This document shows positions 40,128-59,087 of a DNA stretch of 64,000 nt, piece after piece. Under the pieces are notes generated by a model that was given only the letters and a program-made list of their open reading frames with translations, searched no databases and was not told the origin of the DNA. Each line of letters opens with the position of its first letter. Positions within the stretch are counted from its first letter, which is position 1. This DNA is from a phage, in assembly GCA_018175075.1 (NCBI GenBank), contig GCA_018175075.1_4100.1; one strand, 5' to 3'. The position numbers and the translations under genes were made by a program.

Positions 40128-40141
40128 GCACCCGGTGGGCT
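40128..40141 (-). repeat. AGCCCACCGGGTGC element, inverted copy
   Basis: GCACCCGGTGGGCT is the reverse complement of the intergenic element found in forward orientation at 49540, 53530, 59062. Confidence 0.45.
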
Positions 40142-40561
40142 GGAGTCTTTCTCGACTTGATGGAACTATTATACAGTACTGGAAAAATAAAGCAATACCC
40201 TGGATGAAAAAAGTTTTAATTAATTTGCTTGCCATCCTGGGCCGGACTATGGTACTATAATTCAGTACTGAGAAAGTGCGTTAACCTGCTAGGGTGCGGG
40301 AGTGTATCCTTTTTTTATATCTTGAATTTTGGGCGTAATTCCGCACCCTCTGGGGTTTCCGCTTTCTCGCGTCTATGTAGTAATTATACGCTTTTTCAGG
40401 ATCAAGTCAATACCTAAAAACAAATAATTGAAAATAATTTAACGCGTTTAAACGGCCCGTAACGCCCTGGAATGATTAGAATGGTGCAAATGTATAGCTT
40501 AGGTGTATTAATGCGTTAGAATGCGTCTGAGGCCGTTTTATGGGGTGTAGTAGTGATTTGG

Positions 40562-40653
40562 TTGATTCAGTACTGAATAATAGTACTCCTATATAGAAAG
40601 ATAGTTCCCCTGGATTGATTCAGTACTGAATAATAGTACTCCTATATAGAAAG
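40562..40653. repeat. 37 bp direct repeat, two copies
   Basis: GATTCAGTACTGAATAATAGTACTCCTATATAGAAAG at 40564-40600 and 40617-40653. Confidence 0.6.
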
Positions 40654-40685
40654 AAAACTATTTTAAAAGTACATGTAGAAAGTAC

Positions 40686-40745
40686 TTGCACCGTACTGAT
40701 AAAAGCGTATAATGTTTTACATCGAGAGCGGGAACACTTCCCGCT
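40686..40745 (+). promoter_or_regulatory. class-I early promoter plus leader hairpin
   Basis: TTGCAC, 16 nt, TATAAT, GTTTTACATC, then AGCGGGAA-CAC-TTCCCGCT. Confidence 0.6.
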
Positions 40746-40768
40746 ACACTTTAAAAGAGATGAAAACG

Positions 40769-41131
40769 ATGGCGACTCAAATCAATAAAATCATGCTTAA
40801 CCTGGTAAACTTCCGCGATGAGATGAAAGGTCTTCCGGCTGAAACTGTAAAAATTCACATTGCAGCTTATCGGGAACTTATTGCAATGTTGCCGCTTAAG
40901 CGTGAACAATACGCCGCTACTTTGATGCTGGATTCAATGATCCATGTAATGATCTCAAATGATTTAACGATGGTTTATCAGTACATGGGAGAAAATTTCG
41001 CGGTGTGTAGTAAGCCAGTACCAGGGATGGCAACTACTGAGGAATTGCACGGTTTAAATTTAAAGCAAGATGCATGGGATAATATGCCTCGTTTCCTGGT
41101 ATGGGCTGACAGTGGCAAAATTTACAAATAA
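40769..41131 (+). CDS. hypothetical protein, 120 aa
   Basis: ATG after leader hairpin with AAAGAG RBS; alternative start 40760; track start 40712 lies in the -10 box. Confidence 0.55.
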   Translation: MATQINKIMLNLVNFRDEMKGLPAETVKIHIAAYRELIAMLPLKREQYAATLMLDSMIHVMISNDLTMVYQYMGENFAVCSKPVPGMATTEELHGLNLKQDAWDNMPRFLVWADSGKIYK

Positions 41132-41145
41132 GTTTAATAAAGTAC

Positions 41146-41202
41146 TTGCAAACTATGTTTAATGGCGTATAATGTTTTACATCAGGTGGGGAATAGTTCC
41201 CC
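41146..41202 (+). promoter_or_regulatory. class-I early promoter plus leader hairpin
   Basis: TTGCAA, 16 nt, TATAAT, then GGGGAA-TAG-TTCCCC. Confidence 0.6.
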
Positions 41203-41224
41203 ACTATATAAGAGGATTAAAAAA

Positions 41225-41464
41225 ATGGCTAAATCAAAAATGTTCTTAGGTCACAAAAACAAAACTCATTGGAATGTAAGCCTGTGGATTAATAACGATG
41301 AGGGATTGTATCGGTTGGCCCTGGATTTTATTAACGACAACACTAATCGCAATGATGCGGCCCGTCATATGATGTTATTTTTAGAACAGACTGGACAAGA
41401 TAAAACACCGGACGGATTCAAATATAGCACTACTGCGATCCGTGCGGCGATGGTTGGAATGTAA
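41225..41464 (+). CDS. hypothetical protein, 79 aa (paralog of 43265 gene)
   Basis: AAGAGGA RBS; shares GHKNKTHWNVSLWINN...PDGFKYSTTAIRAAMVGM. Confidence 0.65.
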   Translation: MAKSKMFLGHKNKTHWNVSLWINNDEGLYRLALDFINDNTNRNDAARHMMLFLEQTGQDKTPDGFKYSTTAIRAAMVGM

Positions 41465-41511
41465 TAGAATAGAATTTATTTAAAGTACTATCGCAAAAAA
41501 TGATAGTACTT

Positions 41512-41517
41512 TATAAT
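41512..41517 (+). promoter_or_regulatory. possible -10 element (weak -35)
   Basis: TATAAT 37 nt upstream of ATG 41555. Confidence 0.3.
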
Positions 41518-41554
41518 AGTGTTTTATTCATACACCAACGATAAGGGCAACAGC

Positions 41555-41818
41555 ATGAATATTAAGTATTTTGCGACGCGTGAACAAGCTCGGATCGCTG
41601 CACGCCAGGACGGGGCAACGTTTAAAGATATGGGCGTACAATCGGAACGTGGTAAACGTTGGGCCATTGTAAAGCGTAGTACCGCCAGATCATTACAGTA
41701 CTGGTTAGCGGCCTTAAAAAGTCCCGATAGTGTATCGCGTCGAGTGGTAGAAATAAAGCTCGACCGAAAGGGCAACCGCGTGACCGTGTACCGTACTAAA
41801 AAGATTGCAGTACTATAA
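41555..41818 (+). CDS. hypothetical protein, 87 aa (paralog of 54831 gene)
   Basis: AAGGG RBS; shares FATREQARIAARQDGA and DRKGNRVTVY. Confidence 0.6.
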   Translation: MNIKYFATREQARIAARQDGATFKDMGVQSERGKRWAIVKRSTARSLQYWLAALKSPDSVSRRVVEIKLDRKGNRVTVYRTKKIAVL

Positions 41819-41826
41819 AAAAGTAC

Positions 41827-41886
41827 TTGCAAACTCTGTTTAATGGCGTATAATGTTTTACATCGAGAGCGGGAACACTTCCCGCC
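41827..41886 (+). promoter_or_regulatory. class-I early promoter plus leader hairpin
   Basis: TTGCAA, 16 nt, TATAAT, then AGCGGGAACACTTCCCGC. Confidence 0.6.
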
Positions 41887-41906
41887 TATAACCTGGAGTA
41901 ATAAAA

Positions 41907-42137
41907 ATGACTAATATGTATATGACTGAAGTTAAAACCGTAAAAGATACTACCACAAATAAAGTTACTTACTTACAGCGGATCTGTGGTGTATGGCAAC
42001 GTATCAGCAAATCAAAGTACTATAAATTAACATCATATGCAAACCGTTCTGATTCATTCAGTACTGAAATAAAAGGTAATAAAGTACACCAATACGGCAC
42101 TTATTATTATTACAGCCTGGACGCGATTGCAGTATAA
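41907..42137 (+). CDS. hypothetical protein, 76 aa
   Basis: ATG with GGAG RBS. Confidence 0.55.
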   Translation: MTNMYMTEVKTVKDTTTNKVTYLQRICGVWQRISKSKYYKLTSYANRSDSFSTEIKGNKVHQYGTYYYYSLDAIAV

Positions 42138-42167
42138 GCAGTTTACAAATCTTTACAATTGCCGGTA

Positions 42168-42196
42168 TTGACTTATTTTGTCAGTACTGGCATAAT
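42168..42196 (+). promoter_or_regulatory. sigma70-like promoter with no ORF downstream
   Basis: TTGACT, 17 nt, CATAAT; downstream is repeat element, not coding. Confidence 0.4.
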
Positions 42197-42219
42197 GTAT
42201 TCATTGGCAGATAAGCCGT

Positions 42220-42247
42220 AGCCCATAGGGTGCGGGAGTGTATCTAT
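42220..42247 (+). repeat. AGCCCA(N)AGGGTGC element, forward copy
   Basis: AGCCCATAGGGTGCGGGAGTGTATCTAT; inverted partner GCACCCGGTGGG at 42279-42290. Confidence 0.45.
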
Positions 42248-42384
42248 AGAAAAATTAGTTTAGTATAGTTACAATTGTGCACCCGGTGGGTTAGCTGTTG
42301 TCATGGGGTATATTATGCCAGTACTGGATAGTGCTGTCAATACTTTTTTAATATTCAGTACTGAAAACTATTTTTAAAAAGTAC

Positions 42385-42412
42385 TTGCAAACTATGTTTA
42401 AAGGCGTATAAT
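42385..42412 (+). promoter_or_regulatory. class-I early promoter driving candidate ncRNA
   Basis: TTGCAA, 16 nt, TATAAT, GTTTTACATC. Confidence 0.55.
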
Positions 42413-42418
42413 GTTTTA

Positions 42419-42502
42419 CATCAGGACGGGGAACGAAATAAGTAACTTCCCGTTAAGTAGCCCAGGAGTAAGGCACACGAAAAACTCCCCTGATAAAATA
42501 GT
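42419..42502 (+). ncRNA. candidate structured RNA, copy 1
   Basis: about 80 nt without ATG; internal hairpin CGGGGAA...TTCCCG and terminal ATCAGG...CCTGAT pairing; near-identical copy at 53635. Confidence 0.4.
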
Positions 42503-42530
42503 TTGACAATTGTTTTTAAAAGCGTATAAT
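42503..42530 (+). promoter_or_regulatory. sigma70-like promoter
   Basis: TTGACA, 16 nt, TATAAT. Confidence 0.55.
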
Positions 42531-42562
42531 ACTTACATCAACTACTGAATGAGGGTTACAAA

Positions 42563-43174
42563 ATGAAAACTATCACTACTACTACTTTCGTTATGGATTT
42601 TTCTGAATTGAACGCAGAACAAAAAACGTCAGCTATCGAACTGGTTCGGGAACGTGAAAAAAACTCAAACGACAATTATTTTTCTGAAAGTGAAATTGAA
42701 TACTATAAAGAAACAGTACTACCGGAATATGGCATTAATGACGCTGAAATACAATTCAGTGGCTTTTGGTCCCAGGGTGACGGTGCATCAATCAGTACTG
42801 ACCACGTTGACGCAGTGAAGTTTTTACGCAAGGTAAGAGCATTAACTAAGTATCGCTCAATCCGTCACCTGCTGAATGAAGATGATTTGGCGATGAGTGT
42901 AAAGCGTTCGCACTCCCACTACTCGCATGAGAATACTGTAAGCGGGTACATTGAATCGGCTTACACTGATTTAACCGCAAAACAAGAAACGTTAGTTAAT
43001 GAGCTTGAGGAACTACTCACTGAAACTATTCGTGAATTGTCCCGCAAGTTGTACCGTGATTTAGAGAATGCATATGAGGATCAATTCACCACTGAAAACA
43101 TTACGGCACTGATTGAGGGTAACGAATATCAATTCAATGTTATTGATGGCGTAGTAGAATCAATCGAATATTAA
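42563..43174 (+). CDS. hypothetical acidic protein, 203 aa
   Basis: GAGGG RBS; acidic; WSQGDGASI and HSHYSHEN motifs. Confidence 0.55.
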   Translation: MKTITTTTFVMDFSELNAEQKTSAIELVREREKNSNDNYFSESEIEYYKETVLPEYGINDAEIQFSGFWSQGDGASISTDHVDAVKFLRKVRALTKYRSIRHLLNEDDLAMSVKRSHSHYSHENTVSGYIESAYTDLTAKQETLVNELEELLTETIRELSRKLYRDLENAYEDQFTTENITALIEGNEYQFNVIDGVVESIEY

Positions 43175-43186
43175 TTTAAAAAGTAC

Positions 43187-43246
43187 TTGCAAACTAAGTT
43201 TAAAAGCGTATAATACTTTATATCGAGGCGGGGAATGGTTCCCCGC
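43187..43246 (+). promoter_or_regulatory. class-I early promoter plus leader hairpin
   Basis: TTGCAA, 16 nt, TATAAT, then GCGGGGAATGGTTCCCCGC. Confidence 0.6.
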
Positions 43247-43264
43247 TCAAACGAGGATTTAAAA

Positions 43265-43504
43265 ATGGCTAGTACTAAAACTTACAACGGTCACAAAAAC
43301 AAAACTCATTGGAATGTAAGCCTTTGGATTAATAACGGTGAGTCATTGTATCGGCTTGCTCAAAGTTGCATCGCACAAAGTAGAACTAAAGATATTGCTG
43401 CGGAATGTATGTACCGCAGATTAAAAGCCAACGGTACTACTACAACGCCGGACGGCTTTAAGTATAGCACTACTGCGATCCGTGCTGCAATGGTTGGAAT
43501 GTAA
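43265..43504 (+). CDS. hypothetical protein, 79 aa (paralog of 41225 gene)
   Basis: GAGGA RBS; conserved C-terminus. Confidence 0.65.
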   Translation: MASTKTYNGHKNKTHWNVSLWINNGESLYRLAQSCIAQSRTKDIAAECMYRRLKANGTTTTPDGFKYSTTAIRAAMVGM

Positions 43505-43517
43505 TATTCAGTACTGA

Positions 43518-43546
43518 GATAATGGCGGGGAATGGTTCCCGCCTTT
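43518..43546 (+). promoter_or_regulatory. degenerate promoter/leader hairpin, may act as terminator
   Basis: GATAAT then GGCGGGGAATGGTTCCCGCC hairpin and TTT. Confidence 0.4.
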
Positions 43547-43561
43547 ACTGAGGGTTATCTA

Positions 43562-43849
43562 ATGAGTAAAGTAATAAAGTACAATGTGTTAAGTAAATCA
43601 TTGTCTATCAGTGAATGCACCGATGGTTTTTGGATGTACGATGAAACGCGTGGCATGAATTTAGCTATGCGTGCAAAAACTGCTGAGGCGGCGTATATTC
43701 AAGCACTGGAATACTACCAGGAACGTTTAAAGGAAGTAGAAGAAGATTATAAAAGCCTCAAAGCGAAAGTAGATCATTTCGTCGGTCAATTCGTGGAAGA
43801 CAACGACGAGGACGGGCACTACTGCGACCGTTGCGGATCTTACAGTTAA
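43562..43849 (+). CDS. hypothetical protein, 95 aa
   Basis: ATG with GAGGG RBS; C-terminal CDRCG. Confidence 0.5.
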   Translation: MSKVIKYNVLSKSLSISECTDGFWMYDETRGMNLAMRAKTAEAAYIQALEYYQERLKEVEEDYKSLKAKVDHFVGQFVEDNDEDGHYCDRCGSYS

Positions 43850-43866
43850 GTACTAAGGATTATATA

Positions 43867-44079
43867 ATGAGTGATTTAATTGAACGTATCAAAGAGCTTG
43901 AAGAAAAAGAATTGCAGTTGATCGGGTTACGGAATAAAGTATTCCATGATTTAGGTGGCTTTATTAATGCCTGGGATAGTGGCGATCCTGATGCGTTACC
44001 TGCTAACCGCCAGGCGATGATCAATGATGTGCGTGGTGTCTTTGAGTATGTTTTAAAAGTACTAGACACTAAGCAATAA
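43867..44079 (+). CDS. hypothetical protein, 70 aa
   Basis: ATG with AAGGA RBS. Confidence 0.5.
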   Translation: MSDLIERIKELEEKELQLIGLRNKVFHDLGGFINAWDSGDPDALPANRQAMINDVRGVFEYVLKVLDTKQ

Positions 44080-44090
44080 AGGCGTATAAT
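44063..44090 (+). promoter_or_regulatory. possible promoter
   Basis: TAGACA, 16 nt, TATAAT overlapping 3' end of upstream gene. Confidence 0.3.
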
Positions 44091-44140
44091 ACTTTATATT
44101 GGTACTGACAAACATTATAAGCGATTCAGGAGCTTTAATC

Positions 44141-44326
44141 ATGACAACATTATCTGAGGTTATCCGCGTTCAAGCTGCAAAGGCTGGAATGACTGTTATC
44201 AATGTAGGGATCAAGATTGAGATCTCCCCTAACGAGTTGCAAGGGATTCCCGATCCTACTAGCTGGGATCGTGCTGGGCGAATGATGCGTAATGCTTCAT
44301 TACTGGACGGTACAAAATTTAATTAA
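44141..44326 (+). CDS. hypothetical protein, 61 aa
   Basis: ATG with AGGAG RBS. Confidence 0.5.
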   Translation: MTTLSEVIRVQAAKAGMTVINVGIKIEISPNELQGIPDPTSWDRAGRMMRNASLLDGTKFN

Positions 44327-44333
44327 AAAGTAC

Positions 44334-44392
44334 TTGCAATTAGTTTTTAGTACTGTATAATGGTTTACATCAAAGGGAGAAATGGTTCTCCC
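44334..44392 (+). promoter_or_regulatory. class-I early promoter plus leader hairpin
   Basis: TTGCAA, 16 nt, TATAAT, then GGGAGAAATGGTTCTCCC. Confidence 0.6.
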
Positions 44393-44411
44393 TGGTAATG
44401 AGGAAAATAAA

Positions 44412-44633
44412 ATGGCTAATATCACTACTCTTTCCCAACTGGAAGCACTGGTTAAATCTATGCGGGAACATGCCGACAAAATCGGCGTACAAGATCCAGC
44501 CGTTTGCTTCTGCGACGAAATGAATGATGATACACTGGTAATAGCAGAAGTCCAGGACGTTTCTAACTATTCCTCGCGTTACACTGGCGGCGTAGCAAAT
44601 AAAGGTGACTTCTGTTTATACCTTACAAAATAA
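44412..44633 (+). CDS. hypothetical protein, 73 aa
   Basis: ATG with GAGGAAA RBS. Confidence 0.55.
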   Translation: MANITTLSQLEALVKSMREHADKIGVQDPAVCFCDEMNDDTLVIAEVQDVSNYSSRYTGGVANKGDFCLYLTK

Positions 44634-44637
44634 CAAC

Positions 44638-44668
44638 GCGGGGAGATAATAACTCCCCGTTACTTTTT
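44638..44668 (+). terminator. rho-independent terminator
   Basis: CGCGGGGAG...CTCCCCG hairpin then TTTTT. Confidence 0.6.
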
Positions 44669-44699
44669 CAGTACTGAATCATTTAATAGACGGATCTCG

Positions 44700-44711
44700 G
44701 CACCCGGTGGG
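44700..44711 (-). repeat. AGCCCACCGGGTGC element, inverted copy
   Basis: GCACCCGGTGGG. Confidence 0.4.
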
Positions 44712-44801
44712 TTAGTGACTGTTTCGTCTTGATGTAGTAATTATGCCAGTACTGGATGCACTTGTCAACAACTATTTTTCAAATACTTTTTATTAAAATA
44801 C

Positions 44802-44856
44802 TTGCAATTAGTTTTTAAACGCGTATAATGTTTTGCATAGGGGGAGCGGTTCCCCT
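44802..44856 (+). promoter_or_regulatory. class-I early promoter plus leader hairpin
   Basis: TTGCAA, 16 nt, TATAAT, then GGGGAGCGGTTCCCC. Confidence 0.6.
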
Positions 44857-44876
44857 GGTAACTAAGGAATAATAAA

Positions 44877-45113
44877 ATGCTTGAACAAATCAAATCAACG
44901 TCTGCGAATGTAACGGGAACGGTAGCACACTTTACTAGTGATGAATCGCGGGGCGTTCCCTATTGTGCTGTACATGTAAACACTGAGGGTAACTACTGGT
45001 TTACGGTTTACGGATCATATTCATTTGGACGGCCTGGACATCAAAAAATTCTGGATAAAGTACAGCCAACGGGTAAAAATATCACTGCTGAAATGTTTTA
45101 TAAAAAATCATAA
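44877..45113 (+). CDS. hypothetical protein, 78 aa
   Basis: ATG with AAGGAA RBS. Confidence 0.55.
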   Translation: MLEQIKSTSANVTGTVAHFTSDESRGVPYCAVHVNTEGNYWFTVYGSYSFGRPGHQKILDKVQPTGKNITAEMFYKKS

Positions 45114-45118
45114 AGTAC

Positions 45119-45178
45119 TTGATAATAGTTTTTAGTACTGTATAATATTTTACATCGCAAGGGGGGAGCGGTTCCCCC
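45119..45178 (+). promoter_or_regulatory. class-I early promoter plus leader hairpin
   Basis: TTGATA, 16 nt, TATAAT, then GGGGGAGCGGTTCCCCC. Confidence 0.55.
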
Positions 45179-45198
45179 TGGTAACTAAGGATAATCAA

Positions 45199-45498
45199 AT
45201 GAAAATTGCAATCATCGCCCTGGCTTTATCTGTTTCCTCTTTCGCTGTTAATGCGTCGTTAGATGTAAGTAGTGAAAAATTCATTCAGTGCACTGTAGCG
45301 ATGACCAATGAAAGTACTGGCGAGATTGTTTTAAAGGATTTAGAGATCCAGCCAGAAGCATTTAAAAACGGGCCGTTCCATGAAGAAGACGAAAAAGGTA
45401 GCACGACAATTTATTACGATGCAAGTACTAAACGCGGTTCGGTCACTGTTATGGATACTGAGAAAGTAACGCATTCCGGCGTTATTAATTGCCGTTGA
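45199..45498 (+). CDS. secreted protein (signal peptide), 99 aa
   Basis: AAGGA RBS; signal peptide ending VNA/S. Confidence 0.55.
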   Translation: MKIAIIALALSVSSFAVNASLDVSSEKFIQCTVAMTNESTGEIVLKDLEIQPEAFKNGPFHEEDEKGSTTIYYDASTKRGSVTVMDTEKVTHSGVINCR

Positions 45499-45519
45499 TA
45501 GATACTACGGGGTAACATC

Positions 45520-53634: not shown

Positions 53635-53715
53635 CATCAGGACGGGGAACGAAACAAGTAACCCCGTTAAGTAGTCCAGGAGTAAGACATACGAAAAACT
53701 CCCCTGATAAAATAG
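53635..53715 (+). ncRNA. candidate structured RNA, copy 2
   Basis: near-identical to 42419-42502 with stem changes that keep pairing (CGGGG...CCCCG); no ORF. Confidence 0.4.
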
Positions 53716-53716
53716 T

Positions 53717-53744
53717 TTGACAATAGAAAGTAAACGAGTATAAT
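53717..53744 (+). promoter_or_regulatory. sigma70-like promoter
   Basis: TTGACA, 16 nt, TATAAT. Confidence 0.55.
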
Positions 53745-53777
53745 ACTCACATCAACCACTGATAAGGAAACATAAAA

Positions 53778-54053
53778 ATGCGGATTCTACTGACAGCTAA
53801 CGAAATCGAACAAGTACTGACTACTAACCTGGAAGACTGGAAACGTGAAGCAGATATCCAGGCGGTTCAACAGCTTAACGATGAGTTAACGCCGGATGAC
53901 TTAAGCAAGATTGTAGATCCTCAATTCTACGAAGATATCCACGACACCGCGTTAAGCGTCGAGGATGTACTAGATAAGCACTACATTGATATTGATTTGC
54001 AGGTTTACGGTCGTAAAAACTTTATCACTATTCACGACATTTACAATAATTAA
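53778..54053 (+). CDS. hypothetical acidic protein, 91 aa
   Basis: ATG with AAGGAAA RBS. Confidence 0.55.
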   Translation: MRILLTANEIEQVLTTNLEDWKREADIQAVQQLNDELTPDDLSKIVDPQFYEDIHDTALSVEDVLDKHYIDIDLQVYGRKNFITIHDIYNN

Positions 54054-54056
54054 GTA

Positions 54057-54118
54057 TTGACAAAGTATCTTAGTACTGTATAATAGTTTACATCGAGTGA
54101 GGGGAAACGGTTCCCCTC
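54057..54118 (+). promoter_or_regulatory. early promoter plus leader hairpin (about 90 bp module, copy 1)
   Basis: TTGACA, 16 nt, TATAAT, then GAGGGGAAACGGTTCCCCTC. Confidence 0.6.
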
Positions 54119-54141
54119 CTAACAAAGAGAGAGAAATAAAA

Positions 54142-54324
54142 ATGGCTAAGTGCACTATCTGCAAGAAAGAAATAGTATTAGTTCCAAGTGCCCGTGAACG
54201 TGCCGCTCGGTTCGGTGGCAAAGCGTCAGACTATACAAAAATGTTTACTACCCATGCAGCTTGCCAGGTAGCAAAACGTTCACAAGAAAGCGTAGAATTA
54301 ATGCGTAAACTTTCCAAAAAATAA
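54142..54324 (+). CDS. small Cys-containing protein, 60 aa
   Basis: AGAGAGA RBS; CTIC...HAAC. Confidence 0.5.
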   Translation: MAKCTICKKEIVLVPSARERAARFGGKASDYTKMFTTHAACQVAKRSQESVELMRKLSKK

Positions 54325-54327
54325 GTA

Positions 54328-54388
54328 TTGACAAAGTATCTTAGTACTGTATAATAGTTTACATCAAGTGAGGGGAATGGTTCCCCTC
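54328..54388 (+). promoter_or_regulatory. early promoter plus leader hairpin (module copy 2)
   Basis: TTGACA, 16 nt, TATAAT, then GAGGGGAATGGTTCCCCTC. Confidence 0.6.
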
Positions 54389-54411
54389 CTAACTAAAAGA
54401 GAGAAATAAAA

Positions 54412-54735
54412 ATGGCTATGATCCTTGCCCAGAAAGTAGAATTGAAAATTGTAACCTCATTTGACATTAACGTTAATCGGTGGACTGATTCACACGGCAA
54501 TACTTACCACTCTTGCTACGTGTCTGCGTTAATTGGCGACCGCTGGGAAGACCTGGGACATGAAACCTTTACATACGGTTACGGCACACAAGGCGAATAC
54601 ACGGGCTTGGAGATCATTAAAGAAACCGTTATAGGTTTCAACCCGAAAGAAAAAGTTATTCACCAAATCGAAAAAGAGATTAACAAAGAAATAACAGTTC
54701 GATACAACGATGTAAAACGTAAGAAAGACATGTAA
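54412..54735 (+). CDS. hypothetical protein, 107 aa (paralog of 47590 gene)
   Basis: AGAGAGAAA RBS; conserved motifs. Confidence 0.6.
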   Translation: MAMILAQKVELKIVTSFDINVNRWTDSHGNTYHSCYVSALIGDRWEDLGHETFTYGYGTQGEYTGLEIIKETVIGFNPKEKVIHQIEKEINKEITVRYNDVKRKKDM

Positions 54736-54757
54736 TAGAATCCATTTAAAGTACTAT

Positions 54758-54786
54758 TTGACATTGCCCAGATAGTACTTTATAAT
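54758..54786 (+). promoter_or_regulatory. sigma70-like promoter
   Basis: TTGACA, 17 nt, TATAAT. Confidence 0.55.
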
Positions 54787-54830
54787 AGACTCTAACTTGT
54801 AGTACTAACTTAACTAATAGGATGTATACC

Positions 54831-55226
54831 ATGATTACTAAATTCTACGCTACCCGTGAAGCTGCCCGTATTGTTGCACGCGAGGAAGGAGCAGCATTTA
54901 AAGACATGGGCAAAGATGCACCGAAAGGCCAACGCTGGGCCGTACAGTTCAAAGAGATCTCTGATATTGTGAATTCACCTGAGCCAGTACTAACAGCAGC
55001 AGAACTAAAACGAGCGGATATGCTGGCGGCAATACTTGACGCACAAGATGAGTTTATCGCTGGTTCTGATATCAAAGTACAGGTAAACCACACCGCATGG
55101 ACTCACGCGGATCACCTGGCAAACCTTAAGCGTCCAAGTGAACTGATTCGCAACCAGAAAGAGATCCGACATGATCGTAAGGGTAATCGTGTAACAGTAT
55201 ACAGTAAACGCCGCCAGGTTATCTAA
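54831..55226 (+). CDS. hypothetical protein, 131 aa (paralog of 41555 gene)
   Basis: AGGA RBS; conserved N- and C-terminal blocks. Confidence 0.6.
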   Translation: MITKFYATREAARIVAREEGAAFKDMGKDAPKGQRWAVQFKEISDIVNSPEPVLTAAELKRADMLAAILDAQDEFIAGSDIKVQVNHTAWTHADHLANLKRPSELIRNQKEIRHDRKGNRVTVYSKRRQVI

Positions 55227-55248
55227 TAACTTGCAGTACTAACAACAC

Positions 55249-55273
55249 GGCGGGATCAGTTCCCGCCTTTTTT
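55249..55273 (+). terminator. rho-independent terminator
   Basis: GGCGGGA-TCAGT-TCCCGCC hairpin then TTTTTT. Confidence 0.7.
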
Positions 55274-55287
55274 ATAGGACAAACAAA

Positions 55288-55542
55288 ATGATTAAGGTTC
55301 AACTATATAAAGATAACATCTTACGGGTACACTATAAAGCACCTCAGAGAATCATCACAAAGGCCGTACAGCTTGCTAATGAGTTTATTAATGGTAACCT
55401 ATTACCTAGGAAGTTAAGCAACGGGAAACTGCGTGTAATCGACGTGGACACTAACAACAGGATAGTAATCGAGAACACAGGAAAGATAAACCTTTATGAG
55501 CATCAACAATACAATAAGAAAATAAAACTAATATCACGTTGA
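55288..55542 (+). CDS. hypothetical protein, 84 aa
   Basis: ATG with AGGA RBS. Confidence 0.5.
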   Translation: MIKVQLYKDNILRVHYKAPQRIITKAVQLANEFINGNLLPRKLSNGKLRVIDVDTNNRIVIENTGKINLYEHQQYNKKIKLISR

Positions 55543-55567
55543 CAGTACTCAAATGTTTTAGTACTAT
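55539..55567 (+). promoter_or_regulatory. sigma70-like promoter (module copy 1)
   Basis: TTGACA, 17 nt, TACTAT. Confidence 0.5.
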
Positions 55568-55595
55568 GTACACATACCAACACGGGAGAAACAAA

Positions 55596-55814
55596 ATGAA
55601 ATTATCTAAAATCGAAAAGAAAACTATTGATGAAGCAGTTAAGCACGGTTATACCTTTCGTAATGATTCACATTTTACCAATTTTCAACAAGGGTATCGT
55701 ACTATTAAAAAACTAATTGACAAAGGTTTATTAGTTGAAGTCAATAACGGTAACGGTATCGAGTATCAACCAACACAAGACGCATTTTATTTTAAGAAAT
55801 ATAATATTATCTAA
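55596..55814 (+). CDS. hypothetical protein, 72 aa
   Basis: ATG with GGGAGAAA RBS. Confidence 0.5.
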   Translation: MKLSKIEKKTIDEAVKHGYTFRNDSHFTNFQQGYRTIKKLIDKGLLVEVNNGNGIEYQPTQDAFYFKKYNII

Positions 55815-55843
55815 TTGACAGTACTCAAATGTTTTAGTACTAT
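55815..55843 (+). promoter_or_regulatory. sigma70-like promoter (module copy 2)
   Basis: TTGACA, 17 nt, TACTAT; about 60 bp direct repeat of 55539 module. Confidence 0.5.
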
Positions 55844-55872
55844 ATGTACATACCAACACGGGGAGAAACAAA

Positions 55873-56115
55873 ATGATTACTTTAGAAAAACGTATCAAAG
55901 AAACTACATCGCTGGTGGAACTGTTAACAGTACTGAAATGTAAAACAACACCATTCAGCACGCCGGACTTTATTAATATGGTTGATGTTAATGGTCGCTA
56001 TCGTATCACGGTCGTGAATGGTGCGGCGAAAGTATTCAGTACTAAAAACACTAAGGAAGTGATCCACGCCGTTAATGTTAAAAAAGTAGTTGCCATTGAT
56101 AGTAAAGTACTGTAA
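55873..56115 (+). CDS. hypothetical protein, 80 aa
   Basis: ATG with GGGGAGAAA RBS. Confidence 0.5.
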   Translation: MITLEKRIKETTSLVELLTVLKCKTTPFSTPDFINMVDVNGRYRITVVNGAAKVFSTKNTKEVIHAVNVKKVVAIDSKVL

Positions 56116-56146
56116 GATAGTTTCATTAACTCAAGGAGTAAATGCA

Positions 56147-56731
56147 ATGCGTAATTATACTAAATTCATCCGTACACTGTCAGAAATGGAAACCAACAAA
56201 GAGATCCTTTCAGCTTGTCGGTTAGCTGGCCTGGAGATCATCGGGGCGGGATCTTCCCGTATAGTTTTCGCTTTAAATGATCGGTTAGTGATTAAGGTCG
56301 CGAATTGTGATGCGGGTGTAGAACAAAATGAAACTGAATGTAAGGTATGGAATTTTTTAGACTATGACCGCCCTCAGTTGAAACAGTACTTTGCAAAGGT
56401 GCATATGCATTTATGCGATCCTGATAATATGTTTATCGTTATGGATCGGTTGAGTACTGCAAGCAAAGGCAGTGTGAAGCACGTTAACGCGTGCAATGAA
56501 TTAAAGTACAATATTAAACGTAATGCAATCGAACGCCAGCACCGCTTTGCTGATGCACTACAACACGTTGATGATACATTATCAACACTAACGATAAGAG
56601 ATATCAGAAAACAGAATATCGGCCAGGATCGTAATGGACTTATTAAAGTACTTGATTACGGTTTAACCCGCAATATCTGGAATCAGTACTATAAAAAGCG
56701 TGATGTAGCAGCAAGTAAGGTAACACGATAA
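56147..56731 (+). CDS. putative protein-kinase-like protein, 194 aa
   Basis: AAGGAG RBS; Gly-loop-like IIGAGSSRIV, VIKVA, catalytic-loop-like RDIRKQNIG and LDYG (DFG-like). Confidence 0.5.
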   Translation: MRNYTKFIRTLSEMETNKEILSACRLAGLEIIGAGSSRIVFALNDRLVIKVANCDAGVEQNETECKVWNFLDYDRPQLKQYFAKVHMHLCDPDNMFIVMDRLSTASKGSVKHVNACNELKYNIKRNAIERQHRFADALQHVDDTLSTLTIRDIRKQNIGQDRNGLIKVLDYGLTRNIWNQYYKKRDVAASKVTR

Positions 56732-56746
56732 AAAAGATTAAAAAAG

Positions 56747-56771
56747 GGATTGACTCCGGTCAGTCCCTTTG
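56747..56771 (+). terminator. rho-independent terminator
   Basis: GGGATTGACTCCGGTCAGTCCC hairpin then TTT. Confidence 0.65.
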
Positions 56772-56802
56772 CTATTATATATTCATTGAGAGATAACTCA
56801 CT

Positions 56803-56830
56803 GACCCATAGGGTGCATAAGTGTATCTAT
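56803..56830 (+). repeat. AGCCCA(N)AGGGTGC element, forward copy
   Basis: GACCCATAGGGTGCATAAGTGTATCTAT. Confidence 0.45.
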
Positions 56831-56871
56831 TATATAAGTATTCAGTACTGGAAACTATTTTTAAAAAGTAC

Positions 56872-56931
56872 TTGCATTGTACTTAGAATCAAGTATAATG
56901 TTTTATATCGAGAGGGGGAAATGGTTCTCCC
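56872..56931 (+). promoter_or_regulatory. class-I early promoter plus leader hairpin
   Basis: TTGCAT, 16 nt, TATAAT, then GGGGGAAATGGTTCTCCC. Confidence 0.6.
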
Positions 56932-56953
56932 TGGTACATTAAGGAATAAAATC

Positions 56954-57175
56954 ATGACTACAATGACTTGCATTCACGCTTCAAACCTGCTTAATGATGC
57001 GGCCTTTAATGTTGATTCAGAATATCAATGTTATCGGGATGAAAATAAAAAAGTTTTTGTAGTTGATAATAATGGTTTCCATATTGAATTACAATCCGGC
57101 TTCACTGGTGTTGATGGTAAATCAGTATGGGGCGTACAGGATGATAAAGGTACATATCATTTTAAACGTAATTAA
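56954..57175 (+). CDS. hypothetical protein, 73 aa
   Basis: ATG with AAGGAA RBS; track ORF 56750 runs through terminator and promoter. Confidence 0.55.
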   Translation: MTTMTCIHASNLLNDAAFNVDSEYQCYRDENKKVFVVDNNGFHIELQSGFTGVDGKSVWGVQDDKGTYHFKRN

Positions 57176-57178
57176 GTA

Positions 57179-57237
57179 TTGACAAAGTATATCAGTACTG
57201 TATAATAGTTTACATCAAGGGGAGAATAGTTCTCCCC
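57179..57237 (+). promoter_or_regulatory. early promoter plus leader hairpin
   Basis: TTGACA, 16 nt, TATAAT, then GGGGAGAATAGTTCTCCCC. Confidence 0.6.
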
Positions 57238-57261
57238 ACACCAATAAAAGGAAACAAAATT

Positions 57262-57534
57262 ATGTCCAGCTACTCCGCTACTATGATCATTAAAGATATG
57301 AACGGTAATCCTACTTCTGCTGGTGGATCATTTGGAAACATTAATTTAGATGGTCGGTTATCCATGCAATCAGCCATTGATGCAGCTAAAGAAGTTTTTA
57401 AGAATGAATGTACTGTAAGCAAGCTGGATTATATGGGATTCGCTATCGAGAAAACTAATCGTTTTGTGAACTACAAAAAGCCTATGATGATTGATACTAA
57501 CCTGAAAGCTAACGAAGTGGAATACTTATTATGA
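57262..57534 (+). CDS. hypothetical protein, 90 aa
   Basis: ATG with AAAGGAAA RBS. Confidence 0.55.
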   Translation: MSSYSATMIIKDMNGNPTSAGGSFGNINLDGRLSMQSAIDAAKEVFKNECTVSKLDYMGFAIEKTNRFVNYKKPMMIDTNLKANEVEYLL

Positions 57535-57722
57535 CAGTAGAAGAAGTTAAAAAAGTACTGGCAGTACTACGCTATCATAATCATTGTAAGGTGAAGAATG
57601 ATCCTGATTATCTTGATTCATCCCTGGAGGAAGACACCTTAAACGCGATAAGCTATATGCAAACATTAGCAAAGCGTATGACCGAAAAGAATAGGCCGGA
57701 CTATATAGGAAATAAAATTTAA
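57531..57722 (+). CDS. hypothetical protein, 63 aa
   Basis: ATGA overlap with upstream stop. Confidence 0.5.
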   Translation: MTVEEVKKVLAVLRYHNHCKVKNDPDYLDSSLEEDTLNAISYMQTLAKRMTEKNRPDYIGNKI

Positions 57723-57729
57723 AAAGTAC

Positions 57730-57790
57730 TTGCATTGTAGTTAGATTAACGTATAATGTTTTATATCGAGAGGGGGAAATGGTTTCCCCT
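57730..57790 (+). promoter_or_regulatory. class-I early promoter plus leader hairpin
   Basis: TTGCAT, 16 nt, TATAAT, then GGGGGAAATGGTTTCCCC. Confidence 0.6.
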
Positions 57791-57809
57791 CAAGTCCAGG
57801 AGATACACC

Positions 57810-58073
57810 ATGAACACTATCGAAATCACTATCAATGCACACGTATACGACAACGTAGTACTGCAAACTACTATGACCGCTAATGATACCAGTACTTTGC
57901 GGAATACTGTTATTAGTGCCGTATGTGCTGCAATCGGTGATGTCGCCCTGGAAAATGCAAAACACGTAAACGATGGTTTCACTATGTGCAAACGTGATAA
58001 CGCAAAACATATCATCGTGGAAGGTTACGGCGGTGTAGAATTTAATGTTTATATGAAAAAAGTACTTGCATAA
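57810..58073 (+). CDS. hypothetical protein, 87 aa
   Basis: ATG with AGGAGA RBS; track start 57756 lies in the -10 box. Confidence 0.55.
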   Translation: MNTIEITINAHVYDNVVLQTTMTANDTSTLRNTVISAVCAAIGDVALENAKHVNDGFTMCKRDNAKHIIVEGYGGVEFNVYMKKVLA

Positions 58074-58122
58074 TAACTAAAACAAAGTATAATGTTTTGC
58101 ATAGGGGGAGATATCCTCCCCC
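58066..58122 (+). promoter_or_regulatory. class-I early promoter plus leader hairpin
   Basis: TTGCAT, 16 nt, TATAAT, then GGGGGAGATATCCTCCCCC; -35 overlaps upstream stop. Confidence 0.6.
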
Positions 58123-58140
58123 ACTAAAAGGAGTAATAAA

Positions 58141-58365
58141 ATGGCTAACTTTGATGAACTGATGCGGGAAGTAGCTACCCTGGCAGAAGAGAAGAAATCA
58201 TTCGATTCTATCTATAACACCGCTCACCGTGATTCAGTACTGGCATGTACTCAGGATCAAAAAGATGAACTAATCGCCACCTATCATGAAGCATGGAAGT
58301 ACTACCGCCAATGGGAGAAAGAAGAAAGCGAGTCTACCATCAACGGCATCAATAATCTAATCTAA
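58141..58365 (+). CDS. hypothetical protein, 74 aa
   Basis: ATG with AAGGAG RBS. Confidence 0.55.
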   Translation: MANFDELMREVATLAEEKKSFDSIYNTAHRDSVLACTQDQKDELIATYHEAWKYYRQWEKEESESTINGINNLI

Positions 58366-58384
58366 AAGTTTTATTTCAGTACTA

Positions 58385-58413
58385 TTGACATAGCTTGATA
58401 GTACTGATGTAAT
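58385..58413 (+). promoter_or_regulatory. class-II promoter variant
   Basis: TTGACA, 17 nt, TGTAAT. Confidence 0.45.
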
Positions 58414-58441
58414 AACTTTACTAACTACAAGGGGAAACATC

Positions 58442-58699
58442 ATGGAACAATTCACACAATATCGGGTAAATCCTCAAGCTATGGCCTACGTAGAAGACCA
58501 TAAAACGTTACCAGTACTGCAACCAGTTAAAGGCCATATCTATCGTGGCCTTGCCTGGGATACGGCCCAGGATGGATATAAAACCGTCGCAGTGGGGATG
58601 TATTGCGGGAATGGTGAATGGTTTGATCCTAACAATCCGATTGCACTTGACAGTACTGAAAAAATGAAATGGGCCGACTACATCGAAGATATTTCATAA
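58442..58699 (+). CDS. hypothetical protein, 85 aa
   Basis: ATG with AAGGGGAAA RBS. Confidence 0.55.
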   Translation: MEQFTQYRVNPQAMAYVEDHKTLPVLQPVKGHIYRGLAWDTAQDGYKTVAVGMYCGNGEWFDPNNPIALDSTEKMKWADYIEDIS

Positions 58700-58706
58700 A
58701 AACTAT

Positions 58707-58767
58707 TTGACAGTACTAACCAGTAATGTATAATGTTTTACATAGAGCGGGGGAATAGTTCTCCCGC
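58707..58767 (+). promoter_or_regulatory. early promoter plus leader hairpin
   Basis: TTGACA, 16 nt, TATAAT, then GCGGGGGAATAGTTCTCCCGC. Confidence 0.6.
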
Positions 58768-58789
58768 CAATAGTTTGGAGTAAAACATT

Positions 58790-58990
58790 ATGTCTATCGC
58801 TATCGCCCTGGTTGAAGTACTGAAAGAAGCTAAAGCCAACCTTATCGATGTACAGATTAAGGAATTGCAAAACGGCTTAATCGGCTGTACTTGTACCGCT
58901 GGCGGTGCGGCAGACTATCGAGAACACGAATCACTCGAATCACTGGTTCGGTATCTTACCATGATCGTTGATGATTGGAGAATCATCTAA
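58790..58990 (+). CDS. hypothetical protein, 66 aa
   Basis: ATG with GGAG RBS. Confidence 0.55.
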   Translation: MSIAIALVEVLKEAKANLIDVQIKELQNGLIGCTCTAGGAADYREHESLESLVRYLTMIVDDWRII

Positions 58991-59009
58991 CAAAAAAAGA
59001 ATAAAAAAA

Positions 59010-59034
59010 GGGATTGACTCCGGTCAGTCCCTTT
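59010..59034 (+). terminator. rho-independent terminator
   Basis: GGGATTGACTCCGGTCAGTCCC hairpin then TTT. Confidence 0.65.
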
Positions 59035-59061
59035 GCTATTATATACGCATAGACAAAAACT

Positions 59062-59087
59062 AGCCCACAGGGTGCATAAGTGTATCC
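59062..59087 (+). repeat. AGCCCACAGGGTGC element, forward copy
   Basis: AGCCCACAGGGTGCATAAGTGTATCC, followed by GCTGGTGG at 59122. Confidence 0.45.

Follow-up and report, generated by a model that had tools for sequence, protein, structure and literature searches.

We found that a 14-base intergenic element, which occurs ten times in full and once in partial form from 40.1 to 59.1 kb of the window (the whole 64 kb stretch of DNA that was analysed; ~0.3 copies expected by chance), is probably the invariant core of a transcribed RNA module rather than a DNA site. With moderate confidence, we assign these modules to a family of early small RNAs of ~75-105 nt. Our preferred reading is that this family is new and that its members would act at the RNA level, either as small RNAs made early or as leader modules.

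Element copies in the terminal repeat

The window derives from an Asteriusvirus, a 121Q/PBECO4-like jumbo coliphage with a genome of 350 kb, and all element copies fall within its direct terminal repeat. In phage JP4, window position 60492 is joined directly to window position 39039, the CRJP21 record ends at window position 60492, and the repeat start of fEgEco12, confirmed by PhageTerm and restriction (PMC13070987), maps exactly to window position 39039. The repeat is an early region of small genes and many sigma-70 promoters, in which nearly all genes have their own consensus promoter.

When searching the window with at most one mismatch, we observed 8 matches to AGCCCAYMGGGTGC (0.02 expected) and 10 matches to the core CCCAYMGGGTGC (0.26 expected), the latter count being reached in none of 100 shuffles. 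An unfiltered covariance model (CM) scan of all 64 kb returned exactly 10 significant copies together with the partial one, and zero copies in the remaining 42.5 kb. The first-pass annotation had described a repeated element at eleven or more sites in both orientations, and the scan bears this out, with every listed site real and correctly oriented. Two details changed: the site near 40341, taken as partial, is a full minus-strand copy, whereas that near 40289 is indeed partial and lies on the plus strand; and the proposed consensus start AGCCCA does not extend to the copy at 56803, which begins GACCC instead of AGCCC. The features are as follows.

39039..60492 (no strand): direct terminal repeat, ~21.45 kb, holding all element copies
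40102..40200 (-): cassette 1; promoter TTGCTT-N17-TATAAT, 5' hairpin AGUC/GACU, element AGCCCACCGGGTGC, UACGCCC strand, CAGTACTG; CM match 40114-40159, E 1.8e-8
40229..40309 (+): degenerate partial cassette, convergent with cassette 2; weak promoter-like site 40229-40258, hairpin variant CCU/AGG; CM match 40291-40309, E 0.5
40329..40410 (-): cassette 2; promoter 40410-40383 (TTGACT-N16-TATAAT), CGC/GCG 5' hairpin, element CCCAGAGGGTGC; CM match 40329-40374, E 1.3e-4
42168..42247 (+): cassette 3, convergent with cassette 4; promoter 42168-42196, UGGC/GCCG 5' hairpin, element; CM match 42203-42247, E 8e-8
42265..42340 (-): cassette 4, short form without 5' hairpin, its element 45 nt from that of cassette 3; promoter 42340-42312; CM match 42265-42299, E 1.8e-3
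44639..44768 (-): cassette 5, stand-alone small-RNA unit of ~100 nt; promoter 44768-44740, GAC/GUC hairpin, element, AU-rich tract with CAGUACUG, terminator 44659-44639 (bidirectional, common to the upstream plus-strand gene); CM match 44686-44731, and fold
49480..49567 (+): cassette 6; composite terminator/promoter hairpin, UGAG/CUCA 5' hairpin, element, followed 3' by a second promoter (49609-49636) and a gene at 49688; CM match 49522-49567, E 2.4e-11
51140..51222 (+): cassette 7; promoter 51140-51168, GACG/CGUC 5' hairpin, element AACCCATAGGGTGC; CM match 51177-51222
53475..53557 (+): cassette 8, short form; composite terminator/promoter hairpin, second promoter 3' of the cassette; CM match 53517-53557
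56743..56830 (+): cassette 9; composite terminator/promoter hairpin, UGAG/CUCA 5' hairpin, element GACCCATAGGGTGC, then second promoter; CM match 56785-56830, E 3.5e-11
59007..59089 (+): cassette 10, short form; composite terminator/promoter hairpin, then promoter 59157-59185 and a gene at 59239; CM match 59049-59089

Separately, we observe that a 12-mer, ATTTTGGGCGTA, overlaps two element copies near the repeat end, and that the DNA palindrome (C)AGTACT(G), present in cassettes, is 13-fold over-represented across the whole window.

Promoter linkage and predicted RNA structure

Whatever its orientation, the element follows the -10 box of a near-consensus sigma-70 promoter at a distance of 20-30 nt. 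Of 90 unique motif instances, 83 have a sigma-70 promoter with a score of at least 9/12 and its -10 end 20-30 nt upstream, in comparison to 5.6% of random positions, and 54 of the 84 promoters scoring at least 9/12 have TG-extended -10 boxes. The order proposed at first, with a terminator, TTTGCTATTATATA, the element and then a promoter, holds as a composite form in four of the six forward copies, but its parts read differently: TTTGCTATTATATA contains a TGn-extended -10 box (TATTAT) and is the -10 region of the promoter that transcribes the element, while the upstream terminator hairpin holds the -35 box (TTGACT), and the promoter reads into the element. This overlap of hairpin and -35 box is found in four of the 10 window copies (49480, 53475, 56743, 59007) and is absent from the others; an upstream terminator hairpin is also present in many GAP32, CBB and RaK2 copies. 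Downstream of each cassette promoter come 75-150 nt of non-coding RNA, and beyond these a terminator, a convergent cassette or a second promoter.

We predict a transcript made up of a covarying 5' hairpin, for which we count 26 different stem sequences, and the invariant hairpin R-CCC/AYM/GGG-U, followed by GC. A 5' hairpin stem at the constrained position is found in 49 of 64 copies (32 in shuffles), and a stem of at least 4 bp in 37 of 64 (13.4 in shuffles). On the CM alignment, each of the four pairs has changes on both sides in 20-33 sequences, pairing is present in 91.5% of cells and the observed score is reached by none of 500 shuffles, these covariation counts coming partly from an alignment fitted to the model. 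In the element hairpin, the CCC/GGG arms are invariant and the loop varies in both sequence and length (3-4 nt), being mostly ACA, AUA or ACC, with CCU/AGG compensations at L040:4075, L022:4523 and window position 40291. With a stem of just 3-4 bp and almost no sequence variation, this core hairpin receives little statistical support for its pairing from covariation.

The GGGUGC of the element is also predicted to pair with a downstream YRYYY strand. In register, 88-90% of the cells of this alternative helix are paired, compared with 30-57% when slid, and its only changes are G-U to G-C and U-A to U-G, plus three C-G to G-C swaps. Since many of its pairs are G-U, the helix exists only on the promoter-sense strand. 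The element hairpin and the alternative helix compete, and either could be the functional form. Stand-alone units are predicted to fold into the 5' hairpin, the element, an AU-rich tract with AGUACUG and a terminator, for a total of 95-105 nt.

These observations bear on an earlier suggestion that the element is a protein-binding site. A double-stranded DNA site bound by a protein of the host or the phage, for example an early-promoter regulator or a genome-end factor, would account for the 12 bases that are invariant in sequence beyond their pairing potential, and both the over-represented palindrome and ATTTTGGGCGTA point in the same direction. We nevertheless consider it very improbable, as the element is palindromic as DNA only in CCC/GGG, always takes the orientation of the upstream promoter and lies downstream of the predicted start, where a bound protein would be a roadblock. 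Furthermore, the flanking hairpin covaries with compensatory changes, the G-U pairs of the alternative helix exist only in the transcribed sense, and the arms persist whether the loop has 3 or 4 nt.

For the RNA module that we favour, a cassette would begin with an A-rich upstream tract and a sigma-70 promoter of the form TTGACx-N17-TGnYATWAT, its -35 box often within the terminator hairpin of the preceding gene, and transcription would start at approximately 'CAT'. The RNA would open with a 5'-terminal hairpin of 3-5 bp and a purine-rich loop (AGAUAA, AGAACAA or GMGAAA), which would stabilise it, continue through a 4-5 nt linker into R-CCC/AYM/GGG-U, GC and five purine-rich nucleotides, then reach the YRYYY strand (UGUAUCU, UCCGUCU or UACGCCC), the alternative pairing partner of GGGUGC, and finish in an AU-rich tract, usually followed by AGUACUG. 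Upon entry of the terminal repeat into the cell, the units would be transcribed at once by host RNA polymerase; the small RNA of tandem copies would form the 5' leader of an mRNA, and the invariant hairpin and sequence shared by all members would be presented, presumably in trans, to a common partner, either a protein or an RNA and of host or phage origin. We found no complementary target site in the window outside the cassettes, no match to the element in the E. coli genomes searched and no recognisable RNA-binding protein encoded in the terminal repeat.

Conservation, arrangement and recombination junctions

Approximately 80 copies were found in Rak2-like jumbo phages of Escherichia, Klebsiella, Cronobacter, Pectobacterium, Yersinia, Salmonella and Erwinia, clustered in one region per genome. 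Whole-contig scans of RaK2, GAP32, 121Q and CBB confine them to a single region of ~40 kb or less, and in the Muenster and CBB records the copy-bearing site is labelled terminal repeat. The element is therefore neither private to this phage nor randomly placed; a motif search beyond the sites first listed shows a strong positional bias, with copies in the terminal repeat only and always promoter-proximal. The genera that carry it share only 23-30% ANI (PMC13070987), yet the element is near-invariant in these ~80 copies, which indicates selection and agrees with the initial view that it is too conserved for spacer DNA. Cassettes are 80-92% identical between genera at ~25-30% ANI. Across the whole window, Rfam 15 gave no matches at gathering thresholds and no cassette-associated match at E up to 10, and the element copies in GenBank records are without RNA annotation.

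Short copies in both orientations within intergenic DNA are also what a functionless selfish or decaying repeat of the MITE or REP kind would leave, and the convergent pairs resemble the inverted-repeat architecture of Correia or ERIC elements. This origin is hardly credible given that each genome has all its copies in a single region, that neither terminal inverted repeats nor target-site duplications are present, that positions are orthologous across genera, that the stem covaries and that identity persists between such distant genera.

With respect to arrangement, we count 21 convergent, 18 terminator-ended, 11 tandem and 21 other copies, and approximately half of all copies are either antisense to the neighbouring gene and terminator-ended or face another cassette. 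The stand-alone class, exemplified by window 44639-44768 (-) and 13 further copies in nine other loci, has the hallmarks of bacterial-type small RNA genes as defined operationally by an own promoter, a conserved structured non-coding body, an intrinsic terminator and an intergenic position. The tandem copies lack the terminator. Six of the 10 window copies face a downstream gene with no intervening terminator, so that mRNA leaders, not free small RNAs, would be expected from them. The genes downstream of cassettes are mutually unrelated within a genome. Because the cassette is indifferent to orientation, is often ended by a terminator or a convergent partner and stands upstream of unrelated genes, function most likely resides in the RNA product itself.

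The copies had also been proposed as a recombination hotspot that shuffles modules. In its developed form, a PeSL-like mobile regulatory cassette (PeSL, promoter-early stem-loop), the repeats would supply homology driving insertion, deletion and swapping of gene modules in a hyperplastic early region. The composite terminator/promoter hairpin of four window copies is as in PeSLs (PMC4122927), the terminal-repeat region is mosaic among relatives, and cassette subtypes with the same 5' hairpin recur beside unrelated genes and in different genera. However, none of the nine indel junctions identified against four close relatives lies inside a cassette; all are in ordinary intergenic regions, most beside ordinary promoters, with the nearest ~150 bp away. 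The ten cassettes of CRJP21 keep the number, order and orientation of the window, contrary to the expected shuffling of module order, some cassette-gene pairs are orthologous across genera, and the inversions expected from inverted copies are not seen. Homology-driven recombination would in addition leave the compensatory changes of the 5' hairpin and the invariant core unexplained, and we find this account quite improbable.

Returning to the early RNA family, a bolder version, which we put forward only tentatively, is that the cassettes are a dedicated early RNA weapon, in which multi-copy bistable small RNAs, switching between the element hairpin and the alternative helix, would act on one host factor, by capture or by reprogramming. 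Their expression would come from both genome ends within the first minutes of infection, driven by the strongest host-type promoters, and candidate factors would include RNA polymerase, a ribonuclease, an RNA chaperone and a defence protein. If true, the small host-takeover proteins encoded around the cassettes would have a counterpart made of RNA.

Comparison with known systems

PeSLs are known from the T4-like phages RB49/phi1, T4/PST and KVP40/nt-1 (PMC2839356, PMC4122927). In both systems a hyperplastic early region contains short intergenic cassettes that are repeated and have a strong sigma-70-like promoter. A terminator stem-loop is combined with this promoter in PeSLs and in four of the 10 window copies, where the -35 box lies within the stem. 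In PeSLs the conserved stem-loop lies upstream of the promoter, and a Shine-Dalgarno sequence with its start codon comes directly after the promoter. The conserved element of this phage is instead part of the transcript, downstream of the promoter, and what follows it is non-coding RNA and then a terminator, a convergent copy or a second promoter. The cassettes also occur in both orientations, and the observed recombination junctions avoid them.

The lambdoid nut sites (boxA/boxB) and HK022 put are likewise small promoter-proximal RNA hairpins after phage early promoters, in which an invariant sequence suggests recognition by a common factor or polymerase. By analogy, the element could be a cis-acting signal that reprograms polymerase to read through the terminal-repeat terminators, or stabilises or processes downstream mRNA, resembling either lambda nut boxB with an N-like factor or HK022 put RNA acting alone. 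The element sits at ~+22 to +50 of the predicted transcript, directly after a strong early promoter, and a small G-C hairpin of invariant sequence is as expected of a factor-recognition site; the lambda boxB stem is GCCCU...AGGGC, which GCCC...GGGU in the element recalls. Moreover, six window copies head gene clusters 3' of a terminator, five of the eight strongest plus-strand terminator-like sites in the repeat adjoin a cassette, and the 5' hairpin is within a few nucleotides of the predicted 5' end, a known geometry protecting E. coli mRNAs from RNase E.

We nonetheless judge such a signal unlikely. For the half of the copies that are antisense and terminator-ended or face a cassette, read-through would serve no gene, and nearly every repeat gene already has its promoter. 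The element has a stem of 3-4 bp and a loop of 3-4 nt in contrast to the 5-bp stem and GNRA-like pentaloop of boxB, and no boxA (CGCUCUUA-like) was seen beside it by eye in the copy alignments. There are 8-12 cassette copies per repeat, many antisense to genes, compared with two nut or put sites per genome. The CM gave no match at HK022 putL or putR, its best HK022 matches having E >1 and lying elsewhere. No N, Q or other antiterminator family of Pfam was found among the 47 terminal-repeat proteins of the 350 kb genome, and N proteins are poorly conserved.

In setting, although not in the element, this phage resembles SPO1 and T5. The terminal redundancy of the Bacillus phage SPO1 is a host-takeover module and the terminal repeat of T5 is pre-early; both are packed with small genes, terminators and very strong early promoters of the host type, and are the first DNA expressed. 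We know of no repeated structured RNA element described in either. Finally, PA5oct, a related jumbo myovirus, carries non-coding transcription units inside its long direct terminal repeat, as this phage is predicted to do. These are ncRNA001 and ncRNA002, single-copy RNAs of 236 and 451 nt that are highly transcribed throughout infection (PMC7318152). The CM scan of the PA5oct repeat found no cassette, and the PA5oct RNAs and the cassettes are analogous, not homologous.

A putatively transcribed cassette within the terminal repeat

Upon scanning all 64 kb without filtering, using a covariance model built from nine copies of the element AGCCCA(C/T)(A/C)GGGTGC, we found exactly ten significant copies (6 on the plus strand, 4 on the minus strand) and one partial copy, all confined to 40.1-59.1 kb within the terminal repeat, with none in the remaining 42.5 kb of the window. 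The copy coordinates and orientations in the first-pass annotation were correct. The 14-mer with at most one mismatch occurs 8 times versus 0.02 expected, and its 12-mer core 10 times versus 0.26 expected. When the copies are aligned, each in its own orientation, the repeat is far longer than 14 bases and defines a cassette.

Parts of the cassette, in order
Part 1: A-rich tract
Part 2: (G)TATTGACx, 17-bp spacer, TGn-extended YATWAT box
Part 3: about 6 nt, then 'CAT'
Part 4: variable stretch of about 15 nt
Part 5: the element, (C)ACUAR-CCC-AYM-GGGUGC
Part 6: 5 bases, purine-rich
Part 7: UGUAUCU or a variant
Part 8: AU-rich tract, often followed by (C)AGTACT(G)

A promoter scoring at least 9/12, with its -10 box ending 20-30 nt upstream of the CCC arm, was present in 83 of 90 unique instances from 22 loci, against 5.6% for positions drawn at random from those loci. 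The orientation and distance of the element relative to the promoter are fixed on whichever strand it lies, which argues that the element is transcribed. The module order proposed initially (terminator, TTTGCTATTATATA, element, promoter) required revision for TTTGCTATTATATA, which is the -10 region of the cassette's own promoter, whose -35 box is carried by the hairpin AAAGGGATTGACtccgGTCAGTCCCTTT. This hairpin could well double as the terminator of the upstream gene, and would then be a composite signal.

We found that 225 phage records match 39-60 kb of the window (megablast), the best matches being Asteriusvirus jumbo coliphages of 350-385 kb with 94-97% identity, among them CRJP21, fEgEco12, Ecwhy_1, JP4 and 121Q/PBECO4. 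Window position 60492 directly abuts position 39039 in JP4 (a tandem junction), the linear record of CRJP21 ends at 60492, and the PhageTerm terminus at which the fEgEco12 repeat starts maps exactly onto 39039; PhageTerm and restriction digests put that direct terminal repeat at 20,993 bp (PMC13070987). Therefore, window 39039-60492 (~21.45 kb) is the direct terminal repeat and both boundaries are physical genome ends, which places the genome termini within the window. The left boundary reads ...atcccacta on one side and AGTAGGCAGAGG on the other. The repeat comprises a non-coding stretch followed by at least 47 small plus-strand genes, almost every one with its own consensus sigma-70 promoter.

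Non-coding part of the terminal repeat
39039-40700: 1.6-kb non-coding stretch at the start of the repeat

This stretch contains iteron-like tandem repeats of period 24/48 (TCTGGACGGCTAAACGGCTAGATG, 39845-39944), four copies of ATTTTGGGCGTA all on the same strand (39761, 39787, 40111 and 40326; cassettes overlap two of them), along with several promoters facing outward; the stretch is a possible terminus or origin region. Just beyond the terminal repeat, at 60560-63791, about 15 small plus-strand ORFs (52-90 aa) form an array in which each directly follows the last or overlaps it at the start and stop codons, with no intergenic promoters seen by eye and no AGTACT sites, a layout in sharp contrast to that of the terminal repeat. 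The palindrome AGTACT is the top over-represented hexamer in window 1-60492 (283 versus ~22 expected, 13-fold), and CAGTACTG occurs 64 times versus 0.7 expected. AGTACT is found within coding sequence, in every frame, and also in the spacers of promoters, beside -35 boxes, in the stems of terminators (GCCAGTACTnnnGTACTGGC) and 20-30 nt downstream of the element. There are 6.7 sites per kb inside the terminal repeat and 3-4 per kb outside it, except at 60.5-64 kb, which has none.

Predicted structure of the cassette RNA

The stretch from the predicted start to the element folds into a predicted 5' hairpin of 3-5 bp with a purine-rich loop of 6-7 nt. With its position constrained, the stem is present in 49 of 64 unique copies versus 32 in shuffles, and reaches at least 4 bp in 37 copies versus 13.4 in shuffles. 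There are 26 distinct stem sequences, including UGGC/GCCG, UGAG/CUCA, GACG/CGUC, AGUC/GACU, GGAG/CUCC, AGCA/UGCU, GACA/UGUC, ACCG/CGGU and CAAA/UUUG. In the model-based alignment of 83 matches, 91.5% of stem cells are paired (31-53% in slid registers), and for each of the 4 stem pairs 20-33 sequences carry changes in both partners, a covariation reached by none of 500 shuffles; these counts rest in part on an alignment fitted to the model, and the independent constrained-hairpin test and RNAalifold agree with them. Fifteen 'short' copies have no 5' stem and keep the loop-like AGAAACAA sequence. In E. coli there are known cases of a 5' stem-loop blocking RNase E, and the 5'-terminal hairpin probably stabilises the cassette RNA likewise.

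Within the element, the arms of hairpin A (R-CCC/loop/GGG-U) are invariant and the loop varies in sequence (ACA, AUA, ACC, AUU, AGA) and in length, with 3 nt or 4 nt (UAUA, UAGA, GUAA, UCAA, AUUA), and a compensatory CCU/AGG is found in three copies. RNAalifold independently predicts both the 5' hairpin and hairpin A. The arms kept despite loop variation, together with the three compensatory copies, suggest that the core hairpin is real, a support that is thin because the sequence is near-invariant. GGGUGC(R) can instead join the (Y)RYRYYY strand further downstream to form an alternative helix, B, with 88-90% of cells paired in register versus 30-57% when slid; the changes on its 3' strand are all pairing-neutral (G-U to G-C, U-A to U-G), and three C-G to G-C swaps are seen. 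Since helix B is rich in G-U pairs, it would form on the promoter-sense strand only. Hairpin A and helix B are mutually exclusive and of similar predicted stability (medians of -3.9 and -5.2 kcal/mol), and a switch between them is possible. Two further pairings were discarded: a pseudoknot of the 5'-loop AGAUA with UAUCU, complementary in some copies and by inspection without covariation across subtypes, and an extension of the core hairpin by CACU/AGUG, found in few copies only.

Other non-coding units were also observed. A predicted structured non-coding transcript of ~85 nt (ACAUCAGGACGGGGAAC...CUCCCCUGAUAAAAU, predicted -19 to -21 kcal/mol) is present in two copies (42419-42505 and 53635-53720), with a TTGCAW-type promoter on one side and a TTGACA-N16-TATAAT promoter on the other, and possibly represents a second family of small RNAs or leaders. 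The clean intrinsic terminators AGCCCACctgGTGGGCT+T5 (45757-45773) and AGCCCACttatacaGTGGGCT+T6 (46488-46508) both share the 7-mer AGCCCAC with the element, which could be chance or a hint to the element's origin. Among the minus-strand genes at 22538-33130, an intergenic unit of ~70 nt recurs seven times between large paralogous genes, and on the minus strand reads as a GCCAGTACnnnnGTACTGGC terminator followed by ATTAAATATAGTATAATGAATAAAGGAGG, which resembles a T4-type late promoter plus Shine-Dalgarno sequence.

Arrangement, neighbouring genes and module shuffling

Three arrangements of the cassette recur across genera.

Cassette arrangements in the window
44639-44768, minus strand: stand-alone cassette
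42168-42340: convergent pair
40229-40410: convergent pair
49.5, 53.5, 56.8 and 59.1 kb: tandem cassettes

Stand-alone units run antisense to the neighbouring gene as far as that gene's bidirectional terminator, with a predicted RNA of 95-105 nt consisting of the 5' hairpin, the element, an AU-rich tract with AGUACUG and a terminator hairpin. In convergent pairs the cassettes stand face to face with 45-60 nt separating the elements, and a convergent transcript would form a long hairpin with the antisense of the partner. Tandem copies lie 60-100 nt upstream of a gene's own promoter (TTGCAW-N16-TATAAT with a UP-like tract), with no intervening terminator, and would double as the 5' leader of the mRNA. 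Rough counts across ten genomes gave 21 convergent, 18 terminator-ended, 11 tandem and 21 unclassified copies. Within a genome, the genes 3' of co-oriented cassettes are mutually unrelated, and a few cassette-gene pairs are orthologous among E. coli, Klebsiella and Pectobacterium phages.

Given the same build in either orientation, the roughly half of cassettes that are not leaders and the diversity of downstream genes, the most economical reading of this architecture is that the RNA itself is the product. The cassettes would then be a multi-copy family of early small RNAs, with predicted starts and 3' ends. The main rival is a function in cis, as a leader or as a site resembling nut/put, the antitermination RNA sites of lambdoid phages and HK022; the promoter-proximal position and the tandem copies fit it, whereas the antisense and the convergent copies are at odds with it.

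The element had also been proposed as a recombination hotspot, and we compared the window with CRJP21, fEgEco12, Ecwhy_1 and JP4.

Indel junctions between the window and four relatives
43267/44314: indel junction
45491/45756: indel junction
46708/46738: indel junction
47067/47277: indel junction
47274/47478: indel junction
48857/49013: indel junction
53704/53777: indel junction
54148/54311: indel junction
57174/57274: indel junction

None of the nine junctions falls inside a cassette; they lie in ordinary intergenic regions, most adjoining ordinary promoters, and CRJP21 retains all ten cassettes in unchanged order and orientation. Therefore, the AGCCCAYMGGGTGC cassette is not the shuffling hotspot in the available comparisons, which corrects the view of the repeated element as a DNA recombination signal. 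Module shuffling in this region generally resembles that at PeSLs, the promoter-early stem-loops of T4-like phages (PMC4122927). Three near-identical promoter units aaaaatattatcacAGTACTaTTGACAtagtttgatAGTACTggCATAAT (47190-47260, 47480-47550 and 50315-50385) drive short genes starting MAIITK or MAKTII, indel junctions in relatives fall at these units, and they look like paralogous gene-promoter modules.

Distribution, possible partners and known systems

A pattern scan of IMG/VR with the 14 specified bases returned 94 loci, of which the covariance model accepts only those from ~350-kb contigs and a few fragments; 70 of 75 IMG/VR loci, many of them single matches on unrelated contigs, were rejected by the model as chance.

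Contigs among those accepted
RaK2: 345,809 bp
GAP32: 358,663 bp
121Q: 348,532 bp
CBB: 378,379 bp
Yersinia phage fHe-Yen9-04: 354,378 bp

In each genome the pattern matches are confined to one 15-40-kb stretch, which in CBB falls inside the published 22.5-kb terminal repeat. When one cassette was compared with 50,697 phage records (BLAST), only 56 jumbo phages matched, with Escherichia, Klebsiella, Salmonella, Pectobacterium, Cronobacter and Erwinia hosts and 80-92% cassette identity between genera. The site is mostly unannotated, and labelled terminal repeat in Muenster and CBB. The more distant relative PA5oct has RNA-seq-supported ncRNAs in its terminal repeat (PMC7318152), in which the covariance model found no cassette. 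No Rfam family matched the cassettes at gathering thresholds or at E up to 10, the tRNA/tmRNA scan found none, and we found no description of the element in the literature on CBB, RaK2, fEgEco12, PA5oct and Asteriusvirus. This conserved structured RNA unit is absent from all annotation. Jumbo phages of the Rak2/121Q group are phage-therapy candidates in which more than 80% of genes have no known function, and to our knowledge their 20-kb terminal repeats have hitherto been regarded as series of small hypothetical genes. The RNA unit is now precisely defined (a promoter, two hairpins and the invariant GGGUGC, in 8-12 copies per repeat), and the covariance model is supplied with a set of ~80 copies.

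If the RNA is the product, all copies would present one invariant hairpin and GGGUGC to a single common partner. No complementary target sites were found in the window, where GCACCC occurs only 7 times outside cassettes and without pattern; no host look-alike was matched in 5,426 E. coli genomes; and a Pfam search of 47 terminal-repeat proteins revealed no RNA-binding or antiterminator domain, with the domains detected including a DksA/TraR zinc finger, a GNAT acetyltransferase and a ParE-like domain. Several candidate likenesses were set aside: a CsrA-like motif (ACAGGG resembles ACARGGA, with the essential GGA missing and a variable loop), a MazF ACA decoy (half of the copies have AUA or ACC as the loop instead), and the likeness of UUACGCCCA to 16S rRNA GGGCGUAA, present in two copies only and taken as chance.

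With regard to known systems, HK022 putR contains CGGGUGC, which resembles a piece of the element, and the HK022 PL leader (locus L099, 28290-28330, minus strand) reads an element-like ...CATCATAAGCCCATAGACGAACGG...; the covariance model has no match at putL/putR and scored neither the PL leader nor putR, and we regard both likenesses as coincidence. If the cassette RNAs act in trans, host takeover by virulent phages would gain an RNA layer; action in cis would make them the first nut/put-like system to be described for this phage group.
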